From Thermoplasmata archaeon (lineage in GTDB: Archaea; Thermoplasmatota; Thermoplasmata; Lutacidiplasmatales; UBA184): DNA of 64,000 bases. The notes beneath the pieces were generated by a model, which searched no databases, was not told where the DNA came from, and was given only the letters and a program-made list of their open reading frames with translations. How positions within the stretch are numbered: position 1 is the first letter of the stretch; each line of letters begins with the position of its first letter. The stretch is from positions 20,647 to 84,646 of the forward strand of contig JBAQJJ010000031.1 of assembly GCA_049300255.1 (NCBI GenBank), given 5' to 3'. Positions 48,242-57,187 of the stretch are shown here, piece after piece. A program made the position numbers and the translations under genes.

Positions 48242-48326
48242 GCGGGGATTGCCAAGCTTGGCCAAAGGCGCCAGATTCAGGGTCTGGTCTCGTAGGAGTT
48301 CGTGGGTTCAAATCCCTCTCCCCGCA
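48242..48326 (+). tRNA. tRNA-Leu (anticodon CAG), long variable arm, CCA not encoded
   Basis: GCGGGGA/TCCCCGC acceptor stem, anticodon stem CCAGA/TCTGG with loop TTCAGGG, variable arm TCTCGTAGGAGTTC. The T-arm GTGGG TTCAAAT CCCTC carries one T:T mismatch. Confidence 0.7.
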
Positions 48327-48327
48327 T

Positions 48328-48394
48328 GGAACTCGTAGATGAATCTATCGAAAAAGTGGACGGTATTCGAACCCATGGGCGGTTCAAATCCCCA
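48328..48394 (+). repeat. B repeat, copy 1 (ggaactcgtagatgaatctatcgaaaaagtggacggtattcgaacccatgggcggttcaaatcccc)
   Basis: Near-identical copy at 52328..52395 and a diverged copy at 56490..56545. Ends with a hairpin plus a partial tRNA-Leu 3' core. Confidence 0.7.
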
Positions 48395-48832
48395 GGTCGA
48401 CTCGGTGTAAACTGGGGATCTACTTTCAAGCCGACTTGAGCGATGATGGAAACGAGTCCAACCCCTGACTACGCCACTCCTCTCATGTTCGGTCACACAG
48501 GCGGTTGAAATATCGAAATCGAGAATGTCCTGAGGAACAGGGACTGTAACTCGACGACGGGAAGGTTCCAAGGAGTGAGTTTTGAGCTGATGCTCGCCTT
48601 CGGCAGGAATCGTGAGCCTGCACCGAAACGGCGCGTATAGGCTGGTCTTAGTGATCAGGTTCCATATCTCTCGATGCGTGACCAGTGACGTCGAATGGTC
48701 GGCACTCGCATCGGCCTCGGGCTGCATCGCTCGCCTCTGATCTGAGCCCCGTCCTAAGACCCTCCTTGAGCCGCCCCATAATTTCAGCGCGTCTTACCCA
48801 AATCGATTCGCCATCATGCCTGGGAGATTCAC

Positions 48833-55175: not shown

Positions 55176-55190
55176 GTAATAATATAGATT
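55176..55190 (-). promoter_or_regulatory. TATA-like box ~25-35 nt upstream of the RHH start (leaderless-type promoter)
   Basis: Plus strand ggtaataatatagat, i.e. minus-strand atctatattattacc upstream of the ATG at 55155. Confidence 0.35.
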
Positions 55191-55511
55191 ACTATGTGCG
55201 TGCCTGAGAGAGATTCGGCAACGGAAGAGTGTGCCGAGCGAAATCCTTCCTCTCGGGGATATGAAGAGTTCAGAAGTGTCCCCCTCCGACATCTATCGCC
55301 GATTTGTCGCCGAGAAACGACGAGGTTCGAGCATTTGTGTGGAGAGGATTTGAACCCTCAACGGCCCTTCCTGAAAGGGTCGTTTTCTCTTGGACCCCCT
55401 CGCGGCTCTGAATCGTGAGGATGGAGTTGAGGGGCGGTGGGTTGTCGGGGTTGAGGGACAGACTCTTTGGGTGGAGTGGAGTCGAGCCGGAGGAGCGCAT
55501 CGAAGGGCCGG

Positions 55512-55985
55512 TTAGCTCGGCTGAGTTTCCCTGGCCGCTGGGGCGGCAGAGGGAGCGGAGAGCATGCGACGGTTCCTACTCAAGGCTAGAATTCCCATCG
55601 TGGCAAAAAGCGCCACGATGAACATCACTCCCATTCCGAACGAGTAAATCGGATTGTTCGGTGTGGAGCGTTCGAACGCAGATCCAAACTCTCCAGCGAC
55701 GAACACCGCTACGGGTAGCACCGCCGCCAGGCAAATCAGCCGGAGGTCACGGGAGAGGCCCGCCAGGATGAGAATAACGACCCCTACGAGAAAGAGGAGG
55801 AACCCGACCAAAACATGATACACCAAAGACCCTGGCTGAGTGGACATTCCCGAACTGTTTAGTACGAACTGCGCCGGCGCGTAGACGTTGGTCCAAATTC
55901 CCAATAGGTACTGCGCGATCAGTAGAAAGATCTCAACGACCGCGACCCTCTCTACAAGTCGAGTCCATCGGTTAGATCCAGCCAC
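55512..55985 (-). CDS. hypothetical 4-TM membrane protein
   Basis: 157 aa. GTG start. Confidence 0.4.
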   Translation of the reverse strand: MAGSNRWTRLVERVAVVEIFLLIAQYLLGIWTNVYAPAQFVLNSSGMSTQPGSLVYHVLVGFLLFLVGVVILILAGLSRDLRLICLAAVLPVAVFVAGEFGSAFERSTPNNPIYSFGMGVMFIVALFATMGILALSRNRRMLSAPSAAPAARETQPS

Positions 55986-57187
55986 AATCGTGCTTCAATC
56001 GAGGGAGGAGTAAGTATCCTCGGTACGAACTCGACTGAAGCTCGGGGCGCTAGACTAGTCGGCCGACTAGACCGTCCGTACTTTGCACCAACGGGGGTCT
56101 GTGAGCGTTGCCGGACGCCATACCGTAAGGACGTCGCGGAGCGGAGTGGGTTTTGAGAAGGTGGGGTCACTTCTGGACCTCAAGGGTATATTCTGCCGGC
56201 TTCGTGGGTTGTGTTCAATTCGAACCACAGGCGCTGAGCGCGTGCTCGAAATCGTCCAGAACAGGCGCTTTGTGCGACGGGAGTTGATCGTCCACGGTTC
56301 GGACCAATTTCTAACGACGGGGTTGCGTAGGGTGGGTTCCGGTCGACCTTCCGGCCCCATGTCGGGGACATGGTGAATTCAGTAGTGTCCCCCTCCGACA
56401 TTTTACGCCGGCATCGCCCCGAGACACGGCGACGTTTTCTCACTCACCTGTAAGATTCGAACCATGGAGGGTTCGAATACCTCGCCCACACGGAACTCGT
56501 AGAACAACCTATCGAGAAAGTGACTGAGATTCGAACACATGGCCGGTTCAAATCCGCCTCTCCGCACGAGCTATTCGTAGCGATAGGCTTCCGGCGTACG
56601 TCTCAAGGGTGGCAGTCGCTCACGGCGTGGACTCTATTTTCTTGACCTTTCGATCCGCGGCACCCAAAGCGCGGTCGTCCTCTTCTACTTTGATCTTATC
56701 CGAGACGCGGCCGGTCTCGCTGACTTTGTTATCGGCCTGTTCCCACCGCGGCGGCCTCCGCTCTCTCTTGGTTTGCCACCTCGAGACGCCTGGCTTCGTC
56801 GGTCACGGCTCAGCCTCGAGCCTGAGCAGCCTGAGAAGCACGATCGCGGGATTCTTCCACATCGATGACTTCGGCCGTCACTTTTGATGAACGAACGCTC
56901 TGCAGAAACAGTCACCCTGTGATCCCGCACCCGGCGGAGAATCGAACCGTCTTACGACGCTCGAATGCGAACGTCTCCGCCCGTTGAGTCGACGGATCAT
57001 CGAGGTGGCGTTCGATGCCCGCTCGTATTCGTCGAGGGAGGTCGGGCCAATCCGGCCGAACACCGGACCCCGGACGATCGTTCGACGCCGGGTCGGTCGC
57101 GACTTGTCGCTCATGATTCGTTCCGCTCGTAGGGGCGCTTAGCCTTCGCCACTCATCTCTTGCGGTGGCGTCCGAGCCGACGGCAGG

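Follow-up and report, generated by a model that had tools for sequence, protein, structure and literature searches.

A 64-kb stretch of DNA from an uncultured soil Thermoplasmata archaeon (the window) contains a tRNA-Leu(CAG) gene whose 3' end is repeated several times downstream, so that the DNA behind the tRNA is divided into a tandem array of small gene islets. We favor, with a probability of roughly 0.55, a history in which non-autonomous cassettes bounded by attachment (att) sites were inserted serially and site specifically into the 3' end of tRNA-Leu(CAG), the recombinase being supplied from elsewhere. This reading is carried by the repeats and the anatomy of the cassette ends, by insertion polymorphism in relatives, by an end consensus found in about 10 populations, and by the lack of a recognizable integrase in the islets. 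The DNA read comprised the window of the source genome and ~20 kb for each related locus (numbered with the prefix L).

Repeats of the tRNA-Leu 3' end

The last 22 nucleotides (nt) of the tRNA-Leu gene, GGTTCAAATCCCTCTCCCCGCA, recur exactly at 52306-52327 and with one deletion at 54505-54525. Both copies had been described in the first-pass annotation of the window, which was made from the letters and open reading frames (ORFs) only, and sequence shuffles gave an expectation of 0 matches to the 22-mer at up to 3 mismatches. The spacings between successive copies, 4001, 2199 and 2040 nt, bear out the intervals of 4.0, 2.2 and 2.0 kb stated there, as do ARAGORN and Rfam the statement that an intact tRNA stands at the left end (48242-48326). 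Copies 2 and 3 are preceded by an arm (52276-52323 versus 54475-54522) that is 95.8% identical over 48 nt and, as claimed, is absent at the tRNA-Leu gene itself. Moreover, the duplication extends beyond the tRNA: positions 48305-48393, which comprise the tRNA end and 67 nt of downstream flank, are repeated at 52306-52394 with 93% identity over 89 nt. The same 89-nt block aligns with 56469-56557 at 72% (repeat family D1), which makes 56469-56490 the right-border segment that is positionally homologous to the tRNA end. The fourth copy proposed previously, at 56545-56566, does match the 22-mer with 3 mismatches (19/22), but it is the second palindromic unit of the repeated flank module rather than the positional homologue. 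A fifth copy is inverted (55336-55356, minus strand; 2 substitutions and 1 deletion) and lies upstream of a toxin-antitoxin pair on the minus strand.

The G+C content is 54.0% in islet 1, 60.6% in islet 2 and 56.8% in islet 3, compared with 63.8% in the rest of the window; the sharper contrast reported earlier for the first islet (52% against 67%) was not reproduced. The islet with the lowest value is the one that adjoins the tRNA. In addition, the junction copies decay with distance from the tRNA, from an exact copy to one with a single deletion and then to 72% (or 19/22). This pattern of decay, together with the lowest G+C content nearest the tRNA, fits repeated insertion into the intact tRNA and suggests that the cassette nearest to it is the youngest.

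The layout was reproduced in independent assemblies, namely, L001 (44000-56450 at 99.98%), L087 (54493-64000 at 100%) and L091 (48349-52316 at 100%), the contigs of which terminate within repeats. A further contig, L004 (Logan SRR28041794), corresponds to positions 46460-48326 at 100% and ends on the last base of tRNA-Leu; contigs from two other samples continue past the tRNA to 48364. The stop of L004 could mark a branch in the assembly graph, with more than one sequence following the tRNA in the population, and could equally be a coverage artefact.

Anatomy of the cassette ends

The basic unit of the ends is a near-palindrome, TTYGAACC-N6-7-GGTTCRAAT, followed by a 13-nt tail, and its right arm and tail resemble the T-arm and the acceptor 3' strand of a tRNA. 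Each distal copy of the tRNA end is joined on its left to such a near-palindrome, the right arm of which is the T-arm of the tRNA. Six units were found in the window by a strict pattern and eight by a relaxed one, and all eight lie between 48.3 and 56.6 kb; the relaxed pattern also gave one low-quality chance match at 60814. Some units have the Leu tail. In others, the tail CCCCNCTCCGACA is followed by a hairpin-containing spacer, and this combination (tail CCCCCTCCGACAT plus hairpin spacer) forms a second repeat family at 52392, 54603, 55280 and 56389; non-Leu tails also include CTCCGACA.

The two ends of a cassette are built differently. At the right end, a box (CCACwTTYCA) is followed by the near-palindrome ATTTGAACC-N7-GGTTCAAAT, whose right arm continues into the copy of the last 22 nt of the tRNA. 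The left end has a spacer of ~40 nt with an oppositely oriented box and a palindromic unit, or it begins directly with one or two units. Thus, a 16-nt box B (ATCGAAAAAGTGGACG) precedes the unit at the left ends of islets 1 and 2, and the inverted box (CGTCCACATTTCACGAT) precedes the palindrome at their right ends. Sequences like spacer X, the left-end spacer of islet 1, follow tRNA-Leu in L006, L007, L012 and L056 and follow an att copy in L086. The start type of islet 3 (TTYCSRATAYTYGAACCCATG...) also follows tRNA-Leu in L018 and L062, and a unit in L061. The right-end consensus, ATATTTGAACCsCCGGrC plus the Leu 3' end, is present at window copies 2 and 3 and in L015, L018, L050, L055, L056, L061, L062, L064 and L086, although the genomes of these ~10 populations are only 65 to 85% identical in DNA.

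Pairings between the palindrome arms of 27 units were C-A (10), T-A (8), T-G (5) and C-G (3). The sequence of the arms is therefore kept without covariation, which would fit half-sites for a protein rather than a hairpin. Indeed, the core sites of tyrosine recombinases and dif consist of two inverted repeats of 9 to 11 nt around a spacer of 6 to 7 nt (PMC8371274), a layout that the units match. A structured RNA or hairpin was considered as well and dropped because Rfam at a permissive threshold found only tRNA, the second repeat module had a weak consensus fold (-2 kcal/mol) and the arms do not covary.

In five species, the sequence of the distal copies is GGTTCAAGTCC or a close variant, with a G in the T-loop, whereas the tRNA keeps AAAT; the crossover would therefore lie 3' of that T-loop position. 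The block of identity begins at GGTTC in the T-arm and may reach into the trailer, over 89 to 96 nt in the window and ~42 nt in L061. If islet 1 formed a circle, its junction (52305 via the core to 48327) would differ from the chromosomal junction at 52328 (TGGAACTCG versus GGAAATTTG).

Islets 1 and 2 are 93 to 96% identical at their ends and otherwise have no similarity, in agreement with the earlier statement that the cargo is unrelated. The division into three islets described a real array and was probably too coarse. A repeat at 55253-55327 and the inverted Leu-end copy at 55336-55356 suggest that islet 3 is two cassettes, and the window probably holds four or more.

Insertions at tRNA-Leu in related loci

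An aldolase gene and tRNA-Leu are kept as a pair in 58 related loci, and the sequence after the tRNA is highly variable (312 ORFs in clusters of no more than 12 members). In L018, a 2244-nt islet with a cyclase/TPR gene lies between the tRNA and GGATTTGAACCCCCGGAC + GGTTCAAGTCCCTCTCCCCGCA; it is absent in L035, and the flanks align on both sides. A 5920-nt islet of L055, which encodes MscS, a glycosyltransferase, a HAD phosphatase and GH15, is missing from L052. L064 has a 1076-nt islet in front of a toxin-antitoxin pair that directly follows the tRNA in L013, L020, L031 and L036, with offsets matching at 21 to 33 nt. In the occupied relatives, the native flank restarts 20 to 70 nt past the distal junction of arm and tRNA end. 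These pairs demonstrate that the islets of relatives are discrete insertions exactly at the 3' end of tRNA-Leu, and they support the serial site-specific integration at one tRNA that had been proposed for the window. Across relatives and window, islets measure 0.85 to 5.9 kb, and the smallest are a bare toxin-antitoxin pair between complete ends (855 nt in L056, 1076 nt in L064).

The units are not a generic repeat. In the 58 loci, 24 of them occur in 427 kb downstream of tRNA-Leu, versus 1 in 584 kb upstream, and this sole upstream match is a genuine tRNA-Glu T-arm. The distance from the aldolase gene to tRNA-Leu is not constant (0.2 to 5.7 kb), and unrelated genes (DUF929, SDR, lactonase-like and others) occupy the gap in L008, L010, L013, L014, L032, L037, L044, L050, L061 and L062. 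Therefore, the upstream side of the tRNA is variable too, but without palindromic units.

The closest relatives of the window are L006 (87% DNA identity) and L007 (76%). Rather than having the same content without repeats, as an ancestral arrangement would, they have MarR and an MFS transporter enclosed by the two flanks that they share with the window, and homology with L006 restarts at 56599, 33 nt to the right of the last unit. Empty sites, the check suggested earlier, were thus found for the islet family in relatives; for the window's own islets the result is partial, since L006 and L007 share the flanks but hold other genes.

Some kinds of cargo recur. Toxin-antitoxin pairs homologous to that of the window stand after tRNA-Leu in L013, L020, L031 and L036 and after an att copy in L064, in the orientation opposite to the window. 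More generally, pairs of a ParE/RelE-type toxin and DUF7557 adjoin tRNA-Leu or an att copy in at least 8 populations (L013, L020, L031, L036, L056, L064, L086 and the window), and their orientation and sequence vary among populations. The 5.9-kb islet of L055 (10983-16903) is a trehalose-related cluster of an MscS channel, a GT4 TreT-like transferase, a HAD phosphatase and a GH15 trehalase-like protein. This cluster is also present in L035, L018 and L044 and absent from L052, and a recognizable distal att copy was seen only in L055 (16867-16903). At the place of this copy, L035 has ~3 kb of extra DNA (17090-20046) that includes a gene for a 707-amino-acid (aa) molybdopterin-type protein, which may point to additional exchange where the islet ends on its outer side.

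Search for an integrase

The absence of an integrase from the array, noted at first inspection, was confirmed with Pfam on the islet ORFs of the window, and the same search was negative for 20 other ORFs of the window, for the islet ORFs of relatives and for their ORFs between aldolase and tRNA. Likewise, no Cas1 or polymerase B gene was detected in the islets by Pfam. An SSV-type integrase gene would be split into N- and C-terminal parts at the two borders, with its att site in the reading frame; ORFs that span the att copies are short, have a third-position G+C fraction of 0.47 to 0.56 and match no family. Scans of viral contigs with arm plus core, with the general palindrome and with the 22-mer gave no match. 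A metagenome scan for arm plus core returned a single 1.8-kb contig, L086, in which the same junction lies between a ParE-like gene and an acetyltransferase gene, and this contig has no integrase. Contigs of the source-sample population showed no alternative junction; all of them break at the repeats.

Are the islets, then, decayed relics of autonomous elements such as proviruses, plasmids or islands that were inserted serially at tRNA-Leu, lost integrase and backbone and are now immobile? Tandem arrays at tRNA genes usually have such a history, and decayed elements that retain their att sites are well documented (PMC5704250; bioRxiv 10.1101/2020.12.28.424599). Junction quality does fall with distance from the tRNA, a pseudogene remnant beside the array (56878-57114) shows that deletions happen here, and toxin-antitoxin genes are a type of cargo that outlasts decay. 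However, ~12 islets in ~10 populations contain neither an integrase nor a recognizable fragment of one, and this includes islets that seem recent, their repeats being exact or nearly so. If related autonomous elements had been the source, remnants of a shared backbone would be expected, but islets 1 and 2 have no backbone in common despite their nearly identical ends. Moreover, complete ends surround as little as 855 nt, and neither an autonomous element nor a backbone remnant was seen at tRNA-Leu in the 58 loci. We therefore regard decay as a possible but doubtful explanation. The first-pass annotation had offered trans-mobilized mini-elements and heavily decayed islands side by side; the comparative data favor the former and fall short of proving it.

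Proposed serial insertion of trans-mobilized cassettes

The mechanism that we infer involves a circular intermediate, a recombinase acting in trans and a defined order of insertion. In a circle, the two cassette ends would be brought together into an attP-like site made up of inverted repeats of the core type and boxes of the arm type. This site would recombine with the 3' end of the tRNA; an intact tRNA would be regenerated on the left, and the right side would consist of the arm and the tRNA-end copy, followed by the sequence that had formerly followed the tRNA. New cassettes would enter at the intact tRNA, and older ones would be pushed outward while their junctions decay. Since the cassettes carry cargo alone, the recombinase, most likely a tyrosine recombinase, would have to come from a gene at another place in the genome or on a different element.

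Several points weigh against such insertion. Supply in trans rests on absence, because no recombinase was identified and the DNA read was 64 kb of this genome and ~20 kb per relative. Among the 25 of 69 Pfam families listed for 118 representative ORFs downstream of tRNA-Leu there was no integrase, and a regular expression for catalytic motifs run over all loci, a crude tool, gave spurious matches only. Neither an empty-site allele nor a circular junction or a different arrangement was found for the three islets of the window itself, the population contigs being broken at the repeats. L006 and L007 hold MarR and the MFS transporter in place of the islets, and therefore at least one deletion or replacement must have occurred besides insertions. 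The 7-nt spacer of the palindrome (CCCGGGC) is unlike the matching tRNA sequence, and the palindrome therefore cannot be the site of crossover with the tRNA. Finally, addiction could preserve toxin-antitoxin pairs even as the remainder of an element decays.

A quite unlikely alternative is a system like an integron or like the integrative mobile elements exploiting Xer (IMEX), in which the units would act as folded single-stranded sites (as attC or the CTX-phage attP) or as dif-like sites for a chromosomal recombinase, with tRNA-Leu as the fixed entry. Cassettes free of an integrase, the newest of them beside a fixed site, recurrent toxin-antitoxin cassettes and an imperfect palindrome at every boundary would agree with it. 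In addition, arms of 9 to 11 nt around a 6- to 7-nt spacer resemble dif, and archaeal XerA integrates DNA in vitro (PMC8371274). However, the entry site has no adjoining integrase; the genes upstream of tRNA-Leu encode glutamine synthetase, Lrp and a DeoC-type aldolase. The lack of covariation between the arms makes selection for pairing unlikely, and the consensus fold of the spacer module is as weak as given above. Furthermore, the cassettes are multigene, with genes on either strand, and entry is at the end of a tRNA rather than at dif.

That no mobile DNA is involved, and that the array is an ancestral arrangement, a product of local duplication around the tRNA, a dispersed repeat of a generic kind or an artefact of assembly, is highly improbable and largely refuted. 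Spacer X and the first unit are common to L006, L007 and L012, and part of the repeated block may therefore be native flank, but relatives differ in content between the same flanks, the units are limited to DNA downstream of tRNA-Leu, the layout of the window is borne out by three independent assemblies and the cargo has a G+C content of 54 to 61% compared with 63.8%. Scarcely tenable is a transposon-type origin (casposon-like or similar) in which the tRNA end would represent a target-site duplication and the palindromes would serve as terminal inverted repeats: casposons do use tRNA 3' ends as targets and occur as tandem arrays in archaea (PMC4779613, PMC6563490), but Cas1 and polymerase B genes are absent, the ends are asymmetric (the palindrome overlaps the repeat on the right and sits 8 to 40 nt inside it on the left), and a casposon-type duplication was rejected because the duplicated block is not of fixed length, varying from 22 to ~96 nt.

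If trans-mobilized cassettes are indeed moved by a distant recombinase, this would explain the exchange of accessory genes (transporters, the trehalose cluster, secreted enzymes and toxin-antitoxin pairs) in these poorly known archaea, and it would imply that the target site of the recombinase is short and defined. With the conserved consensus of the ends, both cassettes and enzyme could be sought directly. One may speculate, although we consider it rather unlikely, that tRNA-Leu(CAG) is a fixed landing pad in a clade of soil Thermoplasmata and that a chromosomal tyrosine recombinase of the host or of domesticated origin, possibly XerA-like, recognizes the palindromes that mimic the T-arm. If true, this would be an archaeal gene-capture platform with the logic of an integron and unrelated parts.

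Genes and features of the window

The features of the array are compiled in Table 1. The gene caller placed the start of the phosphoesterase-domain protein at 49031, which gives 689 aa. Homologues of the 340-aa protein that follows it carry the Kelch families PF13418/PF24681; the nearest non-identical relatives (79% and 70% identity) are likewise paired with a phosphoesterase-like gene, on contigs too short to reveal islet borders. In the noncoding stretch after the gene for the 157-aa membrane protein there is a perfect 16-nt palindrome, CTAGTCGGCCGACTAG (56055-56070).

Table 1. Coordinates and strands of the tRNA, the cassette ends and the genes in the tRNA-Leu array of the window
Feature	Position	Strand	Basis and remarks
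Intact tRNA-Leu(CAG)	48242-48326	+	ARAGORN; Rfam tRNA, 44.9 bits; left border (attL); last 22 nt are the repeated core
Left end of islet 1	48327-48402	+	Spacer X with box B ATCGAAAAAGTGGACG (48347-48362); unit U1 ATTCGAACCCATGGGCGGTTCAAAT (48365-48389) and tail
Islet 1, 755-aa predicted secreted phosphoesterase-domain protein	48833-51100	+	Pfam PF04185, E 3.7e-14; G+C 52.8%
Islet 1, 340-aa signal-anchor protein, Kelch-repeat-like by homologues	51103-52125	+	Own sequence without Pfam match
Right end of islet 1 (attR-type)	52273-52327	+	Inverted box B CGTCCACATTTCACGAT (52273-52289); palindrome P1 ATTTGAACCCCCGGGCGGTTCAAAT (52290-52314); exact tRNA end (52306-52327)
Left end of islet 2	52328-52467	+	Spacer X'; unit U3 (tail CCCCGCTCCGACA); hairpin spacer Y; degenerate inverted half-unit; families D1, D6, D7
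Islet 2, 495-aa membrane-anchored protein, function unassigned	52561-54048	-	ORF list; no Pfam family; 437 aa by gene caller in L001
Right end of islet 2	54472-54525	+	Inverted box B; palindrome P1 (54489-54513); one-deletion tRNA-end copy (54505-54525); 95.8% over 48 nt to right end of islet 1
Left end of islet 3	54526-54646	+	Two adjacent units (54533-54570; 54577-54615 with tail CCCCCCTCCGACA), then spacer Y
Islet 3, ParE toxin	54665-54907	-	Pfam PF05016, 1.4e-9
Islet 3, DUF7557 antitoxin	54919-55155	-	Pfam PF24434, 8.7e-8
Probable decayed junction inside islet 3	55253-55356		Unit-like hairpin (tail CCCCCTCCGACA); spacer Y (+); inverted tRNA-Leu end 55336-55356 (-); families D4-D6
157-aa predicted membrane protein	55512-55985	-	No Pfam family; identical gene call in three assemblies
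Right border of array	56362-56566	+	Unit-like hairpin (tail CCGACA); spacer Y; U7 (56455-56490, decayed Leu-end copy); X'' (56491-56528); U8 (56529-56566)

To the right of the array, a 78-aa ORF (56878-57114, minus strand) is the remnant of an APH-type phosphotransferase gene, which L006 has in intact form (330 aa) at the corresponding place (13617-14606); ~880 nt of L006 have no counterpart between window positions 56881 and 56998. Elsewhere in the window, a phosphate ABC transporter operon (binding protein, permease, ATPase and PhoU; 32057-36746) is followed by tRNA-Glu(TTC) at 37268-37346. The G+C content dips locally to 56 to 60% in this region, which has no repeat units.

Comparison with known systems

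Tandem islands at tRNA genes are familiar, but no archaeal description of tiny, integrase-free cassettes with conserved structured ends was found in the literature, and here a family of such cassettes is found repeatedly at a single tRNA gene in many uncultured Thermoplasmata from soil. As in tRNA-targeting integrative elements and genomic islands of the tyrosine-recombinase type, there are direct tRNA repeats, an intact tRNA at one end and, for the islet family, empty sites in relatives; in contrast to them, there is no integrase within the element. The islands at ssrA in Dehalococcoides reportedly carry site-specific integrases, unlike the islets of the window. These ssrA (tmRNA) island arrays are likewise tandem islands with repeated 3' ends of a small RNA, and their cargo differs among close relatives (PMC3146451). 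Tycheposon islands of Prochlorococcus also hold cargo at tRNA genes, with older elements pushed inward and with scattered partial tRNAs and degenerate remnants, but they are defined by a tyrosine (or serine) recombinase of their own, usually together with a replication module, and neither is present in the window islets (bioRxiv 10.1101/2020.12.28.424599). The SSV-type ("suicidal") and pNOB8-type elements of archaea share tRNA targets, direct repeats of partial tRNAs and arrays in archaeal genomes; the former leave two integrase halves at the borders and the latter keep an intact integrase (PMC7253208, PMC8371274), neither of which was seen here.

Integron arrays, including chromosomal ones with toxin-antitoxin cassettes, resemble the window in their integrase-free cassettes, in their imperfect palindromes and in having the newest cassette at a fixed entry site. 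Here, however, there is no adjoining integrase and no sign of selected pairing of the attC type, the multigene cassettes have genes on both strands, and entry is at a tRNA end. IMEX elements match in the lack of an integrase and in tandem arrangement but insert at dif via the Xer system of the host, whereas the target here is the 3' end of tRNA-Leu. Casposons have Cas1 and polymerase B, terminal inverted repeats and a duplication of fixed length; in the window these genes are absent and the length of the repeat is variable. Thus, the array fails the defining test of every integrase-bearing family as well as those of integrons, casposons and IMEX.

Cis-mobilizable elements (CIMEs) and tandem accretion at tRNA genes in Streptococcus and other bacteria (PMC5704250) are similar in that attL and attR are kept, genes for integration and transfer are lacking, and the units stand in tandem at a tRNA 3' end with att copies between them. 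CIMEs are defined as decay products derived from integrative and conjugative elements (ICEs) or integrative and mobilizable elements (IMEs) and are moved when a related autonomous element inserts beside them (PMC5704250). In contrast, no autonomous partner was seen at the site in the 58 loci studied here, the islets are smaller (0.85 to 5.9 kb), the host is an archaeon and the palindromes mimic the T-arm. Among archaea, the tandem insertions described previously (PMC6563490) resemble the array of the window.

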